DNA from: Candidatus Latescibacterota bacterium
Lineage (GTDB): Bacteria > Latescibacterota > UBA2968 > UBA8231
Reading direction: 5' to 3'
Assembly (NCBI GenBank): GCA_965261395.1
Contig: OZ253462.1
Location: 4,768,001 to 4,832,000, forward strand
DNA length: 64,000 nt
Part shown: piece by piece, positions 50,403-61,154 of the stretch
How positions within the stretch are numbered: the first letter of the stretch is position 1
Layout: each line of letters opens with the position of its first letter
The notes under the pieces: generated by a model
Told to the model about the DNA's origin: nothing
Database searches by the model: none
The model's input: the letters and a program-made list of their open reading frames with translations, nothing else
Program-made: the position numbers and the translations under genes

Positions 50403-50792
50403 TTACGGAGTATGATCGCTTGCTGAGGGAACTTGGTAGGCAGTGTATTTGAGGTTTTTGCCCCGGGCCTTTTCCACCGGATAGCGCTGGGCCGAAATGG
50501 CCAATTTCTCCTCCAGCATTTGCGCGGCGTCCAAGCCGAAGCGGTCGCACATAAGCAGGACAAAGTACAGCGCGTCGGCCAATTCGTGGCCGATAGCCCG
50601 GCGGAAGGATTCGTCTGCTAGGCGGGTGGCGATCTCTTGGTCGGAGCGAAAGCGGAAGTGCTCCAAGACTTCGGCCGCTTCGGTCGAAAGCCCAATAGCC
50701 AAGTCCTTGGGGGTATGGAATTGCGCCCAGTCGCGCTCCTCCACGAAGCAGCGAATTTGGGCAGTGAGCTGGGCCAGCGTAGCTTCGCTCAT
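50403..50792 (-). CDS. MazG-like nucleotide pyrophosphohydrolase (DCTPP1/RS21-C6 type)
   Basis: FVEERDWAQFHTPKDLAIGLSTEAAEVLEHF, HELAD, RYPVEKARG...KY. Confidence 0.9.
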   Translation of the reverse strand: MSEATLAQLTAQIRCFVEERDWAQFHTPKDLAIGLSTEAAEVLEHFRFRSDQEIATRLADESFRRAIGHELADALYFVLLMCDRFGLDAAQMLEEKLAISAQRYPVEKARGKNLKYTAYQVPSASDHTP

Positions 50793-53099
50793 GATGCGTT
50801 AGACTGAGTTTGGAGAATCGCCTTCACGTCTAGCCGGTGAGTCTGCACAAACCGGATGCTTTTCTCTAACTCTCCCAATTTCAGCGGGACCTCAAGATCG
50901 TCCGAGTCTTCCAAAGCGCGATGCAACTCTTTCATTGCGTCTTCGTCACATATCACAAATTCCTTGTACATTGCCGCGCACAGGGGGCATAACGCGAGGA
51001 ATTGAGCTTCGTGTTCCTTGATAAAATAGTCTTTTGAAAGTGCCTCTACTGCTTCAAAGTAATACTCTCCATCTCGTTTTTTGAACGGCATTTCCTTCTG
51101 GCAAATCTGGCATACCATCTCACTGAAATCATTCGTATATTGCTCTTTAAGATCAATTTTAGGGACCACAGCTCCCCGTGAAATTCGGATGCTTCTTTCT
51201 TGAAGCTCGTATTCTTTTTCAGGAGAACTGTCGAGTTGCTCCTCAACTCTTCTTTGCCTACGATCTGGATTATTTGACGCTCTCTCTGGAAATGTCGGCC
51301 TCTGCTTTTTCGCCTTCTGCTGCTGAATAAATTCTTTCACCGCTTCGGGATCTTCTTTATTTACCTTTGCAAACTCTTGAGCTTGCTCGACGGAAGCAAA
51401 TCCGATGCTTTTGGCAACCTCTTCTTTGCGTTGATATTCTTGAGTGGCTTGTTCCTTTTCTTTTTGTTCCTGTTCCTCACGATCCCGCCTGCTTTTTCCG
51501 AATTCGATTGATTCCAACCATTGCGCTCTGGGCTTATACGAAAACTCTTCTGGGAGCAACTCTGCAACGGCTTCATAAGGCTTCACGAATCTCTCTCTAC
51601 CGTTTTCTATTTGCGGCACCCACCCTCCTCTTCTTAATCTCCAGATAAGCGTAGAATTCGCTGTCCTAATAGAATAGCTGGCATTGGGTCTATACCTAGC
51701 TTCGAGATACTCAATTTCAGGCAATCCATTCATTGTATTCCAGATAAGTTGGGAGTTTCTCAAACCAGGTTCCTTCAATAATACATTAAACTCTGGTATA
51801 TCATAGTCTCTATTTATTTCATTGTCGTTTATCCTAGCACCAGATACTCTTAACTCATCTCTCTCTGGATGAGACCACGGGATATATTGTTTTTTAACGC
51901 ATAGTTTAGTTCGTACGCCAACTTCTTTTGCAAACTTTCCAATTCTCTCTGCACTAATCCCGCACTTTTCATAATCTTCGGATAACGCCCGACGTTTTGC
52001 ATCATTGCCTAATGCCTCATAATAGGCTAATAGTCCGGTTTCATAGAACGGCGAATCAAGATAAACCTCTCTCGGCTTATCCCACTTCCCGTCAGTCAGT
52101 TTGAATATGGAGTAATCTGCAAACATATACGCCTGTTCGGGGTGTTGTTCCACAAAGTCAATGAAGTGCTTGATGTCCTTAATTTTTGATTCCAATCCTT
52201 CATTACTTCTATATCTATCCTTCAGAATCGCCTCAATTCGCTCTTTTTCACCGACTTCACGAACCCCGATTTTTTCAAGGAATTCGCGGGCTTTATCCTG
52301 TTGATTCTTGTCTTTGCCTGACAAACAGAGATTCTTGGCGACGCGGGGCATAGCTTCATCATGCTCCACTCCGTCACTTGGAAAATAGCACTCCGTTCCT
52401 CTTTTGTAGGTTTTATCATTGCATCGAATAATGCGAAGGTTCCATAACTTGTAGGACCTGTCTCTTCCTAATTCATCCAATAACAAAACATAGAATCTCT
52501 GGTGCCACTCGTATGTTTTTCTTTTAAGCCATTTTATCATCGTATCAGACTTTTCGGATAATTCATCTACAAGGTCTAAGGTCGTCCATTCTGTGATCTC
52601 CAGCATGGATAAGAAACGATCTTCCCGCTGGTTTCGTTGCTGAGGATTTGCAATCCACAGCGGTGGGGAGTGTCCATCACCTAGAATCGTTGCCAAATCT
52701 TTGTCTTCGATATGATCGGATAATCGCGCTAGCCCTCTGAAGGCATCCTTTGCAGGGGTATGACCTCCCTGTTTCATCGGGACCAGTTCTTCATTATTGA
52801 ACACCTCAACCAGTTTTTCCATGATGGGTACGTAGGACAAAGGCACGTTGTCTTGATCATTAGGGAGCGTTGCCAAAAATCCTACGGTCAACAGCCCCCG
52901 GTCGCGTATAGTGTTCATTGATTCCGCGATTAAATCCGCCATGTGATCCCGCAGTTCATCATTTTCTGGACAATCACGGACGCTATCGCGGGCAACGGTT
53001 GAAGCAAAAGGTGCATGAAGATGAAACCGCAAATTGGACGTTTCCTTTTCGGCCGGGAAGTAAATTGAAATCTTGCCTAGCAACGGTATAATGCTCCAT

Positions 53100-54677
53100 G
53101 GGCACCTTAGCCGATTGTTATGGCACGATTTCGGTACGTATGTGTATATTTTACAGTAACTTGTTCTATTCTTTTGCCGCCTCCCCCGCGGCACGCTCCC
53201 CTCGATTGAGAAAGAAGGGGAGCAATGCCTGCGATTCTCTCTCTGGCGCCCTTTCAGCAGCGGCAGCAGTGGGCGCGCTTTCGAAGTAGAGCGCATGAAG
53301 CCCTGGACGAGTTGCTGGATCGGGTGGAGACGCAAATGAGCGAGCACGGATCTACTCCGCCGACGTTGATGGAGATTACCGAGGCGGTGTCGCAAGAGCG
53401 CTCCGGGCTTACCGCGGCGGTGGTGGAAGCCTTCATCGAACGCCGCCACGGCCAGTTCCTGGCGCAAGAAGAGGCGGCCTGCCCGAAGTGTGAGCGCGTC
53501 CTGCGTGCGCGACCGTCGCGCTCGCGCACGGTGGAGACGCTGCTCGGGCCGGTGCCCTTGGAGCGGCCCTATTTCTACTGCGTTTCCTGTGAGCACGGCT
53601 TTTATCCGCTGGACGAGGCCCTGGGCCTGTCGGGGCACCGCAAGCAGTGGGACGTTCAAAACGCCGGGGTCAAGCTGGCGCTGGAGATGCCCCACCAGCG
53701 CGCCGCGAAGCTGCTGGACGAGCTGACCGACGCGTCGATGAGCGACTGTGTGATTCACGAGGTGCTGCAACAGACCGGGTCGTTGGACGTGCTGCAGGTG
53801 TGTCCGGACGCGGCCGACATCCAGGATCGCATTGCTCAAGCCGCCGCCGCTCGCAAGTGGCGGCCCATCGTGGTGTTGGCCATCGACGCGGCCGACGTGC
53901 CCAGTCGTCCCGAGACCGCCAAAGGGACTCGTCCGGGGCGCAAGAAGAGCCGGGCTCGGCGAAGGCGTTGGCAGGGTGAATACCACGAAGCCAAGGGCTT
54001 TCGCTTCTACTTGGTAGACGATGAGCGCATCGAGCAGCTGATCTCCTGGCACCAGATGGGCGACGAACAGGCCTTCGGCTCGGCCTTGCGCCAGGTCAAG
54101 GAGGCGGGGCTGATCCCGGAGGAGCAGGTGCGCTTGTGTGCCATCGGGGACGGAGCCCCGTGGATCTGGAAATGGGTGGAGGAACTGTTCCCGAGCGCCC
54201 GTCAGATCCTCGACTACTACCATTGTAGCCGCTACCTGCACGCGGTGGCCGAGGCTCAATACGGCACCGATGCGGCGCGCGCCAGCCATTGGCTGGAAGC
54301 GACTCTGGCGCGCCTGTTCTGCGGTGAGGGCACCGGCGTGGTTTGGGGTCTGCAGCGCATGCAGGCGGTCTCGGAAGAGGCCGAAGAAGCGATCGGCACG
54401 GCCTTGACGTACCTGCAAAAGCGATTGCATCAAGTCGATTTCGGCAGCCATCGCAAGGGCGGATACCCGATCGGGTCGGGTGCGATCGAATCGGCGCATC
54501 GCTTCATCGGCCATGTTCGTCTGAAACGCTCGGGCGCTTGGTGGTATAAGGAAAACAGCAACGCCATTCTTGCCCTGCGTTGCGCCTTGTACAATGGAAC
54601 GCTTGACCGGGTCTTTCAGCAGTACCGAGACAACCTAAAAACAACCACCAAAACCGTAACAATCACCTAATGCACCC
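53100..54677 (+). mobile_element. ISKra4-family insertion sequence (1578 bp) with 8-bp target duplication
   Basis: IRL GGGCACCTTAGCCGATTGTTATGG vs IRR GGGTGCATTAGGTGATTGTTACGG (18/24); TGCTCCAT at 53092-53099 and 54678-54685. Confidence 0.92.
53225..54670 (+). CDS. ISKra4-family DDE transposase
   Basis: CPKC/CVSC Zn motif, LAIDA, IGDGAPWIW, LDYYH, PIGSGAIESAH, RLKRSGAWW. Confidence 0.92.
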   Translation: MPAILSLAPFQQRQQWARFRSRAHEALDELLDRVETQMSEHGSTPPTLMEITEAVSQERSGLTAAVVEAFIERRHGQFLAQEEAACPKCERVLRARPSRSRTVETLLGPVPLERPYFYCVSCEHGFYPLDEALGLSGHRKQWDVQNAGVKLALEMPHQRAAKLLDELTDASMSDCVIHEVLQQTGSLDVLQVCPDAADIQDRIAQAAAARKWRPIVVLAIDAADVPSRPETAKGTRPGRKKSRARRRRWQGEYHEAKGFRFYLVDDERIEQLISWHQMGDEQAFGSALRQVKEAGLIPEEQVRLCAIGDGAPWIWKWVEELFPSARQILDYYHCSRYLHAVAEAQYGTDAARASHWLEATLARLFCGEGTGVVWGLQRMQAVSEEAEEAIGTALTYLQKRLHQVDFGSHRKGGYPIGSGAIESAHRFIGHVRLKRSGAWWYKENSNAILALRCALYNGTLDRVFQQYRDNLKTTTKTVTIT

Positions 54678-55514
54678 TGCTCCATTGCTCTGAGATTTTC
54701 TTTTGTTTCTTTCGCTTTTCTGTCTTTTTAGCAGTTTGTTCTTGTTTTCTCTCCAAACGGAAAGCAGCGGCAATTCGGCACGACTTCAACTCACCGTTTT
54801 CGTCCTTCACCTCAACCTCCTTTTCAAATCGAAGAAAAGAGACTGAAGCCGGTTTCGAGTCTCCTGGACGCTGGACGAGAATCTCAATTCTATTTTCCTG
54901 ATCTATTTCTTTCCGCTCGATAAAACCCTCAGTTGAATCAGGCAGCCGATATTCTATCTTTTTAATATTGCTGAGAAAGAGAAGCGTGCTTTCGTCCAAC
55001 CGCAGCAGATTTCTTTCTATTTCAGCACGAGCTTTTTCAGGTGGCTTTGCGTCATTATCAAAAGGGAAAGAGAAGTAGGTTTGTTTTTCGCCCCGAGGAC
55101 AGGAAGCCAATCCCTTCGTATCGGGCACGACTAAATCACGGATGTGGAAATGATATTCGCCTGATGTAATTTCAGGCGTCTCCGTATAGGCAAATACAGC
55201 TTTGAAACCAACACCAAACTTGCCGATGCTGGTCTGATCTTCTCTCTTTTTGCTGAAACCGATACTTGTAATAGAGTCCACATCCTCCAGAGTGAATAGT
55301 CGAGCTCCGTTGTGTTCAAATTCGACACTGTCCTCTCTGAGAGTGAAGCGCACTTCTGTTGCGTGAGCATCCTCAGCATTTTGCAGAAGCTCATAAATGA
55401 AGTGCGCGTTGTCGGGATATAGATCGGTTAGTAAACGTCTGATGCCATCATCAAAGCCGTTTTCGCGGTTCGCCTCTACCCACTTCAAACGCTTCTCTCG
55501 TAATTCTTCCAGGC

Positions 55515-58500
55515 TCATTTTATCTCCTCAATGTTGAGAACCCCATACGCCACTGGCTCCGCGACAATATCGACTTTCTCCTCGGCCCTATCCAAATCCT
55601 CAACGTGCCGGTTGTAGTCAGCCTCTGCTCGGCCTATCTGCGATCGCCGCATCCTTTGTATCCTCTCATTACTTGCATTTTCAAGCTGCTCTCCAAGGAG
55701 TGCCATCTGCGCCCGATGGCTCGTCGTCAAACTCTCTCTGCGGTACGCTGCCAATTCCTCAGTCCGTTGCCGGTGCTCTGCCCGTGCCTCAGACCACAAC
55801 CGATGATGCTGTGCCTCCAGTTCGTCCCACTCGCCCTGTTCCCCTGCCTCAGCATCCTCCGCCTTCTCTAAAAGGCGACCCAAATGCGGCACTACTGCGT
55901 CCGACGAGGCAACCAGCTTGAGCTTTAAATCTTCCCGGATGCCGTAGAATCGCCACTGATAAACGACGAACTGATACTGGCCAGTAGGCGCATCATCGTC
56001 CCGCACCTTTAGGTTGACAACGGCCCGTTCATCACTATCAAAAAAACGGGCTGCCTGTTTCACCAAAGGATGCAGTGGCATGACAAATGCGGCCTCTGGA
56101 TGCTGGGTGGCACAATCCTGCTCAAAGGTTATTTGCAGATGCTGGTCTTCCCCTTTCAGCCATGTCTCCCACTCCCGATAGGTGCTCTGCCTAGGAAGCT
56201 GTTGAAAATCGCCCAACAAGAGATTGCGCGCATCCTGTGCAAGCCTCAGCGTTTTCAGGGGCCTCTCGCCGAGGATGAAATCCCGCTCTTCCCCACATCG
56301 CTGCTGTAAATAGAGCGCGGCGAGCCTTTGTAGTGAACCCGGCGTCAACCAAAAGCTCGAAGCGTCTCTAATCTCCCTCTTCATCTGGTCTTCAGGGAGA
56401 CGAATACCAAAAAGCTTCATCTGATTCTGTTCCAATCCTTCCTGTTCTTGTATTAAGCGAATTTTATTGTCTGCCAACTGCTGGAGTTGAGCCTGGCGCT
56501 CCTCTTCACTGAAGGTATAGTTCTCGGCGATGTCCTTTATTTCTTTGGAAATCTCCCCGAGGATTTCTTCGCTACCGCCGAGAGCCTGCTCAAACACGCC
56601 TATGCGTTTGAGGCAACGCTCATAAATGTCCGCGTCAACAGTGCCCGGCGTGATCAGGTTGACGATAGCGACGCTCTCACTCTGCTGGCCGTTGCGGTCA
56701 ATGCGACCGATCCGCTGCTCCACCCGCATCGGGTTCCAAGGCAAGTCATAGTTCACAATGCAATCGCAGAACTGGTAATCCAAGCCCTCGCAACCAATCT
56801 CCGAGAACAGCAAGACATCGAGAGCGTCGCTGTCCTCACTCGATCTCTCAAACATACGCCGCAGTTCAACACGCTCCTCATCTGGCGTCCCGCCGTGGAC
56901 CATGGCGACGCGCACGCCATCCGCCCTGAGCCTCTCGTAAAGATAGTGCAGTGTGTGGCGAAAACTGCTGAACAGCATGACTTTGTTGTTAGGTAAGGCT
57001 TGCTTGTCCTCGATGATTTTGCACAGTTCCTCCAACTTGGGATCGTAGGGGTCAAGTGTGCTCGCTTTCTCAAGTACGTCCTTGATTTGAGATCGGATCG
57101 AAGCGACGACATCGCTTGGCGGGACGGGCTCCCCGTCGTCAGCCTCTTCCCATTCCAATTCGTCGAGCCGACGATTCAGAATGCTCTCAAGGAAAGGGGC
57201 CAATCCATACAGACAACTCGCCGCTTGGCGTCTAATCGTGGTCATCATAAACTTGACATTCTTATCCCCGTGAAGCCGACTGAACATGTCCGCCTGAACA
57301 GCGAGTAATTCGTCGTGAAGCTGCTTTTGGCTGGGAGTGAACTCAACATGTACTGTTTTCGGCTTTCTCACGGTGAATGCCCCAATATCGCGTCGTCGCG
57401 TCCTGTTGATCATGCTCGCAAAAGTATGCAGCACTTCCATGTCCGTGATGAGTTGGATGCGTTCATCCACAGCCACGTAGCCCTCAGCAAGTTGCCCTCT
57501 GACCCTCTTAAATTCAGGATTGTGCCTGAGAATGGCTCGTCCCCAACCCGTAGCGGCCGCTTCGTCGAGTGCTTCCATGGCCTGAGCCATCCAATCTGCC
57601 GCTTGGGTCCGCGCATGGTCCACCGCTTTATTGATAAACGGATTCGGCTCGGCCATGCGCTTAAAGCTCTCCATATCCTGAATTAGGTCGGGCCGCAGCA
57701 CGTTCAGCAGCACAAATAGGTCTTCGCTACCAAGCTGGACCGGGGTCGCGGTCAAAAAGACCGCAGACTCGGCGTAATCACAGAAAAATCGGACGGCCTC
57801 GTGAGAACGAGTGTTCGGATTGCGGATATGATGCGCTTCATCCACGATCACGAGATCGAAACGCGGCGGCGGGTTCAAATCCAGCAGTCCTTTCCCCTGC
57901 CTTCTTCTGCCCCTTCCCTCTGGTCCGTAAAGAAGTTCTTCGCCAAACAGCGAGTACGGAAGAATCGCTTTCTGATACTGAACGGGCCATTCGCCTTCCA
58001 GATCCATCTCCTTGATGCAATAACTTAGCGTTGAGCCATCCAAATGGGTGAACTGTTCGCCAAACCGCTTCATCTCACTTCTCCACTTGCCCTCGGCCAC
58101 CAATGGACGGGGACATATAATGAGTACAGACTTGATCTCCCGCCTCGCTTGCAACTCCCGCAGGATCAATCCGGCCTCAATGGTCTTGCCGACCCCGACG
58201 CCATCCGCGATCAACAGGCGCGGACGGTCTGACCGAATGAACCTCAGCACGGGCCGGAACTGATAAGGGATGAAATTGACGCGCGCCGCGTTCAGCGAAT
58301 ACAATGTCGATAGGCTGGGATGCCGAATCTGTAGCGCGGTCAGGTAGGCATGAAACAGGTCGCGCGAAAGCGGCTGCAAGCCATCAGCGGGCCGCTCCTC
58401 GGCCTGTAACTGAGAGGCATAATACGTCTGCACACTGCCATCCACAAACACCTTCACCCGGCTTTCACCTTCACCCGGCAGCACTTCCACAACCGCACCT

Positions 58501-59333
58501 TTCACAGAAGGATCGGACTTTAAGAAGACGATTTGACCTGGTACAAACACAGTTTGGTCTGGCATATATTTTTCGGCCATCTGCGAGGCGCTAGCGGCAA
58601 GCAGACGACCGAGCACTTCCAAATCGATCATTCGTGCATGTTCGCAGACAGCTAGTACTTGGTCAAAATGCTTATCGAGGTCTTGGTGTATCTGGTGATT
58701 TCCGTCCACGACATCATCGGTCACGTAGTGGACCAAAATCTCGGCTGCCTTGACTAGATGATAGAGTCCTATCAATTCGAGCGCGACCACCTTGGCATGG
58801 GCCGTTTCTTGTCCTACAAGATACTTCTTTTCAAAACCAGATTGGGCATCGCGCAGGCGGGAGGTTCGTTTCAAAACTACGTCGAGGTCGGTATAGCGAT
58901 CCTTGCGGATCAGTCGTAGCCAAACATCAAGGACTGTTGCCCAAGTGCGCTTATGCCAATCTTCCGAATCAACGGGAAGCTCATCCCAAGGTTCTTTCTC
59001 TAACCATAGCACTGCATCAGCCTCTTTATCTCCCAATACGGCAAGGATTCCCGCTCTCAATAGGAATTTCCCGGCATCGAGTGCGTCGGCCGGACGAGGC
59101 AAGGCGTGCAGCAAATAAAAGGCAGCAGCAGCGGCGAGTTGCAGTTCCCTTTGCTTTTTCTCGTCATCCGCTACGTCCTCAAGCATGAGATCGAGCACAG
59201 CCATTTCCAGCACGTCGGCAGCACGTCGGAACAATTTTTCGTCTACCAGCTTGTGCGAATTCTGTGCAAGTTGAGCTTGATTCAGCGCTTGTTGGCACAT
59301 CTCTTTCTGGTCTTCAAGCAGCCAATGACTCAT
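55515..59333 (-). CDS. SNF2/RapA-like helicase with an extra ~256-aa N-terminal helical domain
   Basis: PYQ, LIADGVGVGKT, VDEAHH, LTATP, EGLDYQ, YDLPWNPMRVEQRIGRIDR; ATGA-coupled on both sides. Confidence 0.92.
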   Translation of the reverse strand: MSHWLLEDQKEMCQQALNQAQLAQNSHKLVDEKLFRRAADVLEMAVLDLMLEDVADDEKKQRELQLAAAAAFYLLHALPRPADALDAGKFLLRAGILAVLGDKEADAVLWLEKEPWDELPVDSEDWHKRTWATVLDVWLRLIRKDRYTDLDVVLKRTSRLRDAQSGFEKKYLVGQETAHAKVVALELIGLYHLVKAAEILVHYVTDDVVDGNHQIHQDLDKHFDQVLAVCEHARMIDLEVLGRLLAASASQMAEKYMPDQTVFVPGQIVFLKSDPSVKGAVVEVLPGEGESRVKVFVDGSVQTYYASQLQAEERPADGLQPLSRDLFHAYLTALQIRHPSLSTLYSLNAARVNFIPYQFRPVLRFIRSDRPRLLIADGVGVGKTIEAGLILRELQARREIKSVLIICPRPLVAEGKWRSEMKRFGEQFTHLDGSTLSYCIKEMDLEGEWPVQYQKAILPYSLFGEELLYGPEGRGRRRQGKGLLDLNPPPRFDLVIVDEAHHIRNPNTRSHEAVRFFCDYAESAVFLTATPVQLGSEDLFVLLNVLRPDLIQDMESFKRMAEPNPFINKAVDHARTQAADWMAQAMEALDEAAATGWGRAILRHNPEFKRVRGQLAEGYVAVDERIQLITDMEVLHTFASMINRTRRRDIGAFTVRKPKTVHVEFTPSQKQLHDELLAVQADMFSRLHGDKNVKFMMTTIRRQAASCLYGLAPFLESILNRRLDELEWEEADDGEPVPPSDVVASIRSQIKDVLEKASTLDPYDPKLEELCKIIEDKQALPNNKVMLFSSFRHTLHYLYERLRADGVRVAMVHGGTPDEERVELRRMFERSSEDSDALDVLLFSEIGCEGLDYQFCDCIVNYDLPWNPMRVEQRIGRIDRNGQQSESVAIVNLITPGTVDADIYERCLKRIGVFEQALGGSEEILGEISKEIKDIAENYTFSEEERQAQLQQLADNKIRLIQEQEGLEQNQMKLFGIRLPEDQMKREIRDASSFWLTPGSLQRLAALYLQQRCGEERDFILGERPLKTLRLAQDARNLLLGDFQQLPRQSTYREWETWLKGEDQHLQITFEQDCATQHPEAAFVMPLHPLVKQAARFFDSDERAVVNLKVRDDDAPTGQYQFVVYQWRFYGIREDLKLKLVASSDAVVPHLGRLLEKAEDAEAGEQGEWDELEAQHHRLWSEARAEHRQRTEELAAYRRESLTTSHRAQMALLGEQLENASNERIQRMRRSQIGRAEADYNRHVEDLDRAEEKVDIVAEPVAYGVLNIEEIK

Positions 59334-60124
59334 GGCTCACCTCCAGGTATGCGAGATGGAAGGTCACCGATGGCGCAAGGCAGATATATTGCGATCAAGC
59401 AGCATGTTGTCGGGCATTGCAGTTTTCCCGCCATAGTTATTCCTCGTGTCCGTAAATCCAACTCATTGGGCTGCGTATCCCGAATCAGAACCCCAAAGAG
59501 CGCAAGTGCCTTGTTTCCCGACTTAAGGAATATTCTAACCGCAGCTTTGAATAATGTTTCATGGTCCGTTCCTTTACAGCGTGGTAAAAGCCATATAAGA
59601 AGCTGACTAACCAAGGACAGATCGTTTGCTAAGTTGTCTATCTGGTGCATTAAACCGCTCCGACCGTTCATTACACTCGGTGGTGTCCCGGAGTGAGTGG
59701 ATGATTTCACCTCACCCAGTACGAGGCGCGTAGCCCCACCTTCAACTATAAATCCGACCAAATCTGCACCTGGAAGGCTCGCATTAGGATGCCGCTTATC
59801 GCGTTCCATGTTCCAAGGCCATGTAATTTCATACTCGCGACTCAGGTACACTTCAGCTACTGCTTCCCCCGCCGCCCAACTTGGCTTTTCACTTATTTCG
59901 GCTGCCAGGATTTCCTCAAGGCTATCTCGAGCGAATCCTGTGTCGGCTAAGTCTTGAAGATACGCTTCAAATTCGGCCTTGCCTTCTTCATCGTAAAGCC
60001 GCACCGAAACTTCGTTGGATATGAACAAATTGAACGCATCGCCGTCTTTCATACTTACACCCTGCCAAGATACCTGACGGTCCTGTCTTTTATAGTCTGT
60101 GGTTAATAGATCTGGCTCTGTCAT
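59330..60124 (-). CDS. PD-(D/E)xK nuclease, Hachiman HamA-like
   Basis: GEAVAEVYL...SLPGADLVGF...LVLGEVKSS. Confidence 0.65.
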   Translation of the reverse strand: MTEPDLLTTDYKRQDRQVSWQGVSMKDGDAFNLFISNEVSVRLYDEEGKAEFEAYLQDLADTGFARDSLEEILAAEISEKPSWAAGEAVAEVYLSREYEITWPWNMERDKRHPNASLPGADLVGFIVEGGATRLVLGEVKSSTHSGTPPSVMNGRSGLMHQIDNLANDLSLVSQLLIWLLPRCKGTDHETLFKAAVRIFLKSGNKALALFGVLIRDTQPNELDLRTRGITMAGKLQCPTTCCLIAIYLPCAIGDLPSRIPGGEP

Positions 60125-60302
60125 ACCCTCATCTCGCGGACTCTCAGCCGCGCTACCGTTTTAATTTGCCCCACCAGCACGGTCGCTTGGGGTGCTATTC
60201 TAAAAGAAATACCAATACACTGCGCTGTACACCAAGAGCAATACCACCCTTCTCATCGAATAAATCTGATCCTGCTTCCGGCTCGGCATCGACGCCGTGT
60301 CC

Positions 60303-60348
60303 AGCAGCGAGCCTAGGCGATAATCTGGATCAGTGTAGCGTCGCTCAC
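60303..60348 (-). repeat. Degenerate copy of the MazG-like gene 5' end (partner at 50747-50792)
   Basis: 33/46 nt identical, ungapped; VSDATLIQIIA*ARC vs MSEATLAQLTAQIRC. Confidence 0.7.
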
Positions 60349-61154
60349 TAGCACCCCAACCCGCGCAAATACTGGCGTATCCCCGCACTCCGCCGCGCCT
60401 CACTGACCGCGTCCTCGCCCTCGTAGGCGGGCTCGCCCGGACAACTGGTCACCCAGCGGTCAAAGCCCCGCTCGGCGAGCGTGTTGAGCACCCCGGCAAA
60501 GTCGAGGCACTCGCCCTCGCCGACCGAAACCCACTCGGGATTGTAGCGTCCCGGCTCGCGCACCGTGCAAGACGTATAGTCCTGGAGGTGGACGTAATTG
60601 AGCTGGTGCCAAAAGTCGATTAGCGACTGCACTGGATCGTAGTCCCACAGCTCGGCGTGCGAGACATCGATGCACAGCCGCGCCTTGTCCAGCAAGCTCA
60701 TGTACAGCCGCCAATCCTCAGCCGAATCCACCAGCAAGTTGGTGTGGATGTGGTAGCTTAGCTCCAGCCCGTACTGGGAGGCGTACTCGGCCCACTGCTC
60801 GGCCCCCTCGGCCGCCCGCTCAATATCGGCGCGTTCCACCGGCCGCCCTTCCGGCTTGCGGCCGCTCATAAACATAAAGCAATCCACGCCCATCTCGGCG
60901 GCGAAATCCATCCGCCGCTTGTTGCGCTCGGTGTGCTCCCAGTCGCGGTCTTCGGGCGAGCCACTAGCCGTAAACACGCACAGCGGCATATCCGCGTCCT
61001 CGCACACTTGCTTCAGCCGCTTCGGCGGCCCCAACCAGTCGAGCGGCAATCGCCCCTCCCAGCCGTCCCAGCCAGCCTTTTTGAGTTCGGGCAGGGCCTT
61101 TGCCAAATCCGGCTGCCGCCAGCGCAGGGTCGCGTATCCCATCTTGAGTGCCAT
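60348..61154 (-). CDS. Sugar phosphate isomerase/epimerase (xylose isomerase-like TIM barrel)
   Basis: GWDGWEG, LSYHIH, LCIDVSH, YVHLQD, VGEG. Confidence 0.85.
   Translation of the reverse strand: MALKMGYATLRWRQPDLAKALPELKKAGWDGWEGRLPLDWLGPPKRLKQVCEDADMPLCVFTASGSPEDRDWEHTERNKRRMDFAAEMGVDCFMFMSGRKPEGRPVERADIERAAEGAEQWAEYASQYGLELSYHIHTNLLVDSAEDWRLYMSLLDKARLCIDVSHAELWDYDPVQSLIDFWHQLNYVHLQDYTSCTVREPGRYNPEWVSVGEGECLDFAGVLNTLAERGFDRWVTSCPGEPAYEGEDAVSEARRSAGIRQYLRGLGC

Follow-up and report, generated by a model that had tools for sequence, protein, structure and literature searches.

Among the closest described relatives of the system reported here is type I Hachiman, which pairs the nuclease HamA with the Ski2 helicase HamB. 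As published, the N-terminal helical domain (NAH) of HamB binds and solubilises HamA and takes motion from RecA2 (PMC12278908), while HamA alone is described as insoluble (PMC12278908), as inactive in the type I-B form (PMC11914072) or as apparently without effect on growth when expressed (PMC13064477). A related candidate listed by PADLOC, PDC-M23, is attributed to the supplements of 10.1101/2024.01.29.577857. Swt1-like HEPN domains fused to SWI2/SNF2 ATPases are listed in PMC3710099, and Type IV Tiamat-like proteins are described as having a catalytically degenerate HNH-like end, with a nuclease-fused helicase in the IV-B neighbourhood (bioRxiv 10.64898/2026.09.30.754977). Here we analyse a window of 64,000 nucleotides from a Candidatus Latescibacterota bacterium (assembly GCA_965261395.1, contig OZ253462.1, positions 4,768,001 to 4,832,000), in which, in one bacterial genus, the fusion of a HamB-type NAH to an SNF2 ATPase appears to have merged two immune systems.

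The open reading frame (ORF) in question spans 55515 to 59333 on the minus strand and encodes a protein of 1272 amino acids (aa) that begins with MSHWLL and includes LELIGLYHLVKAAEIL and HFD. A first-pass annotation, made from the letters alone, had read it as a chimeric helicase, and the two halves do match different full-length families. PADLOC assigned residues 8 to 255 to PDC-M23B (E value of 1.5e-54, or 1.7e-54 for residues 1 to 256) and residues 264 to 1144 to DrmD (PDLC02623, E value of 1.8e-120), and Pfam recognized SNF2-rel_dom and Helicase_C in the SNF2 half. The PDC-M23B model was aligned only at its positions 18 to 264 of 1060, short of the full-length M23B that PDC-M23 calls for. 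Similarity to the donor helicases stops at ...ASQMAE, right before the donor NSIW linker and the first motor motifs, and the NAH part of the fusion holds nothing of RecA1. The HamB-type homology ends at E254 and is followed by a 2-residue linker, after which an internal methionine, Met257 (MPDQ), beginning at 58565, heads the SNF2 unit at the position given by the annotation. Its "SH3/Tudor-like" label for residues 257 to 335 is a lead only, with no Pfam match and with RapA Tudor as the nearest named Atlas cluster at 0.81, under the mark of 0.9 that no Atlas search reached. Among 26 fused proteins, 10 have the 2-aa linker and 16 have one of 22 aa, always in frame, and Met257 is replaced by Ile in two. 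Both linker forms are present in one public run; separate origins for them are unsupported, as they are intermixed in one clade. An assembly chimera was ruled out by the recurrence of the same fusion in 26 clusters at 90% identity and in six intact genomic loci, and because contigs of two other studies span the junction (6 differences over 56753 to 60377 and none over 58275 to 59079). The chimera is real, a whole HamB-type NAH joined to a RapA/DrmD-like SNF2, and it arose when two operons were fused with a deletion, not by reciprocal exchange.

The fusion gene belongs to a run of overlapping genes, made up of a 264-aa nuclease (whose stop overlaps the start of the fusion gene), the 1272-aa fusion, a sacsin-like gene broken by an insertion sequence (IS) and a MazG-like gene, with the following features:

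59330 to 60124, minus strand: HamA-like PD-(D/E)xK nuclease (PDC-M23A), 264 aa, on the basis of PADLOC, homologue domains, catalytic triad and the ratio of nonsynonymous to synonymous substitution rates (dN/dS)
58572 to 59333, minus strand: HamB-type NAH, fusion residues 1 to 254, predicted HamA dock
58566 to 58571, minus strand: fusion junction, short linker K255-Y256
55515 to 58565, minus strand: RapA/DrmD-like SWI2/SNF2 ATPase, fusion residues 257 to 1272
54678 to 55518, minus strand: 5' part of the IS-interrupted Tiamat/sacsin-like GHKL ATPase gene (Pfam SACS, E value of 2.5e-21; TmtA, E value of 8.9e-43)
53100 to 54677, plus strand: IS (Pfam UPF0236 transposase ORF at 53225 to 54670; 8-bp target duplication)
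50789 to 53099, minus strand: 3' part of the Tiamat/sacsin-like gene (TmtA, E value of 8.2e-17, PADLOC)
50403 to 50792, minus strand: MazG-like nucleotide pyrophosphohydrolase, accessory (Pfam MazG-like, E value of 1.3e-10), overlapping the stop of the Tiamat/sacsin-like gene

Residues 1 to 256, described in the first pass as all-helical, gave an AlphaFold2 model with 11 helices, zero strands and a predicted local distance difference test score (pLDDT) of 88.3. No Pfam family was found on these residues, which do not qualify as a HEPN RNase and have the NAH fold. The model aligned with residues 7 to 269 of HamB (8vx9_B) at a Z score of 17.1 (root mean square deviation of 3.2 over 231 residues, next match at 11.0), and the top two Foldseek matches were also HamB, with a probability of 1.00 but E values of 0.025 to 0.037. 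As modelled, the grafted NAH is a complete domain. Among the best 120 of 201 sequence matches to residues 1 to 256, 26 carry SNF2 domains (75 to 99% identical) and 94 are DEAD/DEAH helicases, mostly of about 1055 aa (56 to 67% identical). These 94 helicases, the Ski2-like donor P0035, which matches HamB at an E value of 1e-19, and the HamB fold confirm the statement in the annotation that this N terminus normally heads Ski2-like helicases.

The nuclease upstream is a remote HamA member in PADLOC (PDC-M23A, E value of 4.6e-97; HamA1, E value of 0.0018). DUF1837 (PF08878) was found on 19 of its 120 listed homologues but not on the window nuclease, and the nuclease profile gave no sequence match to solved HamA. 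The putative catalytic residues D121, E138 and K140 are kept in all of the homologues compared, 17 from the fused clade and 103 others. A complex of the nuclease with residues 1 to 256, whose interface the first pass had expected, was predicted with a score of 0.80 versus 0.52 for the best control, contact agreement between runs of at least 79% and pLDDT values of 85 or more for the partners. The mark for such a score is attained by 116 of 157 solved pairs and 2 of 215 mismatched pairs. Because a like complex (HamAB) has already been solved, this pass speaks for likeness and not for binding, and it is in the model only that NAH still binds the HamA-like nuclease 1:1. The donor-invariant NAH residues that changed in the fusion lie mostly outside this predicted interface.

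The NAH profile matched 17 of 168 genomes from the phylum, and the in-frame fusions all fell within the genus of the window. Two of the six intact loci are at different sites in the genome of the window (G000), and the others are in G012, G013, G022 and G069. The second operon copy in G000 (C1:2815780-2823624; L020:9783-17625) has all three genes intact and 84 to 87% identical at another site; its linker is of the long form, and Ile replaces the internal Met. In quick or FastTree trees, the fused loci formed one clade each for NAH, nuclease and SNF2 (support of 99, 100 and 100), and the fusion arose once, in one Ca. Latescibacterota genus. The SNF2 tree, built from 54 chosen rows and rooted on a distant HEPN-bearing homologue with a long branch, placed HEPN forms at the base and HEPN-less forms in one clade (support of 99), with the fusion nested inside it. 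The order of events was that HEPN was present, HEPN was lost, NAH was gained and NAH was lost again in some lineages. Two partial sequences, P0010 and P0025, were excluded from the SNF2 trees, and P0025 is also absent from the NAH tree and from the conservation and nuclease comparisons. P0247 was considered as a pre-fusion donor and rejected, since it was basal in one tree but the rooted tree places it within the fused clade. No further fusion of NAH, whether with SNF2 or with a recognisable domain of another kind, appeared among the best 150 of 518 NAH representatives and the best 120 of 201 matches, where seven NAH proteins with tails of more than 60 aa, judged by eye only, looked like frameshift tails. 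Plasmid searches with an NAH stub and with the nuclease gave no match, and viral scans gave three and one loci, none fused.

The acceptor was identified from the SNF2 half. Among the best 120 of 6444 matches to residues 257 to 1272, 24 are fused, 81 are standalone SNF2s, 10 have an N-terminal HEPN_Swt1 (confirmed by scan in four of the 10) and five are same-clade clusters without part or all of NAH. The closest solved relative is RapA (best PDB match, E value of 1.8e-33), and all 26 fused proteins have the five motor motifs intact. The SNF2 half is 71 to 75% identical to SNF2s that precede a Tiamat/sacsin-like ATPase gene and is nested in the family tree of HEPN-SNF2/Tiamat-like systems. A HEPN-SNF2 query retrieved 75 JGI loci. 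HEPN precedes SNF2 in 60 of the 62 with upstream room, a fraction biased by the query (one of the two lacking HEPN was a script artefact and the other was real), and SNF2 is followed by a sacsin/Tiamat-like gene in all 54 that have room for one. The Tiamat-like gene, whole or in pieces, also lies downstream in 13 of 13 fetched standalone-SNF2 loci with downstream sequence and follows the fusion in six of six intact loci. NAH is in the position of an ancestral nuclease effector, since the basal SNF2 relatives carry HEPN at that N-terminal slot, but HEPN was already gone from the immediate acceptor.

Some further features of these acceptor modules were recorded. The two-gene module of HEPN(Swt1)-SNF2 and Tiamat/sacsin-like ATPase is widespread, with an intact RNRWAH motif (L082 to L156; L030:6040-12765), and PADLOC gave only partial matches to its SNF2 and Tiamat-like parts. 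Unrelated N-terminal extensions of 50 to 75 aa were seen on the HEPN-less SNF2s P0248, P0253, P0274, P0291, P0295 and P0297, which indicates that the SNF2 N terminus readily acquires foreign sequence; our impression is that they resemble pieces of small antitoxin-type proteins. The Tiamat-like partner has two N-terminal ATPase variants (64 to 90% versus about 36 to 39% identity to that of the window; L022:9891-13001, L027, L036, L076), and the fusion in G012 is paired with the other variant, a modular exchange downstream. The gene is intact in the second copy in the genome of the window (1062 aa), in G012 and in G069. In G022 it is also split, around IS-like ORFs. In the window it is interrupted by an IS of 1578 bp with seven genomic copies at 99.7% identity or more, and this insertion is recent. 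The window gene ends in an HNH-like CxxC...CxxC module whose Cys pairs have no His between them (motif view of eight loci), and we tentatively note a resemblance to the Type IV Tiamat-like class as far as that preprint describes it.

The possibility that the fusion is a neutral deletion scar on its way to being lost was considered in the light of selection. Three of nine genomic loci are decayed (G006, G018 and G066, with nuclease and NAH both deleted or broken in each, although the G018 frameshifts might be sequencing errors), five clade clusters are without part or all of NAH, and an IS breaks the partner gene in the window. On the other hand, pairwise mean dN/dS values over the six intact loci, which are non-independent, were 0.36 (0.27 to 0.48) for NAH and 0.335 (0.25 to 0.46) for the nuclease, intervals that exclude 1 and largely refute a scar, compared with 0.23 for residues 257 to 345, 0.15 for the SNF2 core and 0.24 for the C terminus. 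Frames are also open and the catalytic triad invariant at 75 to 99% identity across the 26 clusters. The fusion and the upstream nuclease are under purifying selection, and a neutral scar is very improbable.

We favour a reading in which the nuclease, held by NAH, serves the SNF2/Tiamat-like system as a tethered substitute effector that lacks the allosteric trigger of HamB, and give it a probability of roughly 45%. A Hachiman-like PDC-M23 operon (nuclease and Ski2 helicase) would have been stripped of its helicase core precisely where NAH ends, and NAH would have been joined in frame to a RapA/DrmD-like SNF2, ancestrally HEPN-bearing at that place and working beside a Tiamat/sacsin-like GHKL ATPase. 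NAH would bind the HamA-like nuclease 1:1 and hang it from SNF2 by a flexible linker; SNF2, as a double-stranded DNA translocase, together with the Tiamat-like ATPase would find or engage a DNA target, which the tethered nuclease would cut, in an abortive or restriction-type anti-phage defence. Coupling would thus be delivery by tethering, without the RecA2-to-NAH ratchet of HamB. Tethered delivery is the best reading because the catalytic triad and the frame are kept, the motor is intact and NAH occupies the effector slot; the anti-phage function itself, and any dependence of the nuclease on SNF2, we infer. More tentatively still, the HamB NAH may be a portable adaptor that Hachiman-type helicases have shed repeatedly at one boundary, leaving a widespread pool of NAH-only proteins in which the core and the face for HamA are retained; one of these would have been captured here by an SNF2/Tiamat-like system, replacing an ancestral HEPN RNase with a DNase recruited in trans to give a working hybrid.

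The first-pass annotation went further and saw a domain swap that rewires the nuclease to a different sensor motor. The chimera stands, while SNF2 as a sensor controlling the nuclease is so far unsupported. In its strong form, the motion of SNF2 would be passed to NAH and would release or activate the nuclease like the HamB ratchet. The fused clade does have a long stem (0.34) and newly fixed residues (R150L, F200L and A201V at 100%, W147Y at 92%), changes that could mark a new NAH-SNF2 surface. However, linker length varies by 20 aa with the two lengths intermixed on the tree, the 20-residue windows that lose donor conservation (141 to 160 and 201 to 220) are also the most variable in the fused clade (0.75 and 0.74), the drift of NAH-invariant residues is repeated at the same sites in stubs that have no motor, and nuclease and NAH were lost at least three times with SNF2 kept. 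Allosteric rewiring is accordingly improbable.

The stubs just mentioned are NAH-only proteins. Within the best 150 of 518 NAH representatives (P0339 to P0488), homology to the full-length donors ceases no more than 10 columns from the fusion boundary in 69, compared with four and six ends in the flanking 20-column bins and 26 full-length representatives, although the stub share is inflated because clustering at 50% favours divergent stubs. Several are recurrent, of the same length and on long contigs (for instance, five members of 284 aa, on up to 3.8 Mb, among 20 looked up), and they are polyphyletic, with 21 changes on the tree of which at least 10 are forced. The stubs keep the core residues W126, R161, Q164, E168, L187, Y191 and F223 at 0.89 to 1.00 and relax R109, R143, K144, W147 and G207, and the fusion changed largely the sites relaxed in stubs (Spearman 0.41, P = 0.005, 46 conserved columns). 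From the helix topology, the relaxed loops would be at the end of the bundle leading into the helicase; the single-sequence model of donor P0035 had a pLDDT of 36, which left the helicase-facing residues unmapped. NAH-only proteins are possibly an undescribed two-gene module, an antitoxin or a HamA decoy. One NAH-only ORF was seen at the edge of a viral contig beside phage-like genes, with short repeats interrupting it (IMG/VR L179:343-1197, L180), and may be either flanking host DNA or a decoy aimed at Hachiman.

These proteins bear most directly on another explanation, that nuclease and NAH are a self-contained passenger pair, toxin-antitoxin-like or autonomous, whose stub tail ran into the next gene. 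The shared boundary in polyphyletic stubs, the relaxation of the same residues in stubs and fusion (R109, W147, G207), the tolerance of a 20-aa change in the linker and the fact that the nuclease is kept without NAH in none of nine genomic loci all favour it. It is opposed by the published descriptions of free HamA, from which a role of NAH in folding and tethering fits better than one as antitoxin. Neither readable NAH-only genomic locus has an intact adjoining nuclease (it has a shifted C terminus in G163, L176:9907-10749, and is missing in G025, L033:5959-6825), and the co-losses of nuclease and NAH are explicable as single deletions of adjacent genes. We regard such a pair as unlikely, though it is the main contender. 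In the same reading, the SNF2/Tiamat-like module works alone and the fusion at most makes loss of the pair costly. The passenger reading also draws on the many standalone modules without HEPN or NAH, the repeated loss of nuclease with NAH, the broken Tiamat-like genes and the frequency of stubs without a motor.

Tethered delivery itself has several observations to contend with. The ATPase of HamB is described as required for defence in both published systems, and better conservation at the predicted nuclease interface was a nonsignificant trend (P = 0.06 to 1.0 and P = 0.09 to 0.21). At least three secondary losses of all or part of NAH are nested in the fusion clade with SNF2 retained, and the Tiamat-like gene is broken in two of five fully seen intact loci, including the window. 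Standalone SNF2s without HEPN are so common (81 of the best 120) that the N-terminal slot may stay empty, and the frequency of stubs without a fused motor means that retention of NAH needs no SNF2.

Regarding the surroundings, the island lies downstream of a xylose-isomerase-like gene (window 60125 to 60347 and 50403), a site used again with differing cargo in G006, G012, G018, G022, G066 and G069. The MazG-like gene was seen again, among the fetched loci, in G066 only. No sigma-70 promoter was found within 58300 to 60500, and one RNA run, present as contigs only, was a small share with little or no cover over most of NAH and is uninformative on expression. Donor PDC-M23 operons of family f2 adjoin type I restriction genes and are followed by an hsdR-like ORF; decay is seen in several (L031, L032, L033, L176).

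All parts of the locus are of known kinds, and the graft is new as far as literature searches reach: no title or opening of an abstract was found describing an NAH-SNF2 fusion or NAH-only proteins (the supplements defining PDC-M23 may bear on this), and the name PDC-M23 was unmatched in full text. If the hybrid defends, it would represent an exchange of effectors between immune systems through a protein-docking domain instead of an effector fusion, and if the adaptor reading is true, nature would have a means of connecting HamA to any motor. The chimera also offers a handle on the little-studied SNF2/Tiamat-like modules.

Compared with type I Hachiman (PDB 8VX9; PMC12278908), as described there, the locus has the same D-ExK nuclease gene directly upstream, the same NAH fold and a predicted 1:1 interface, whereas the Ski2 RecA1/RecA2, winged-helix, CAH and OB parts are missing and the motor is SNF2. 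Without the Ski2 core, the RecA2-NAH ratchet is impossible in its known form. PMC12278908 leaves undecided the role of the HamB helicase beyond damage sensing and HamA release and the choice between cleavage in cis and in trans, questions that become directly testable with the chimera and stubs, which separate the docking domain from the Ski2 motor. The HEPN(Swt1)-SNF2 plus Tiamat/sacsin-like module has an SNF2 that is 71 to 75% identical and the Tiamat-like gene directly downstream, but its N-terminal slot carries a fused RNase, where the fusion has NAH, a protein-binding domain through which a DNase would be recruited in trans. DISARM DrmD and RapA-type SNF2s belong to the same motor family, and no Drm or methylase match was found by PADLOC among the three other proteins of the operon, the only proteins searched. 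The addition of a DrmD-like SNF2 to ietAS in ietHAS (PMC13069673) is a precedent for recruitment, described there as an added helicase and not as a domain graft. The PADLOC candidate PDC-M23 (M23A and M23B) is the direct donor, with a nuclease up to 71% and an NAH 56 to 67% identical in the same gene order; in the fusion, M23B is cut after residue 254 and its helicase part of about 790 aa is replaced by 1016 aa of SNF2.
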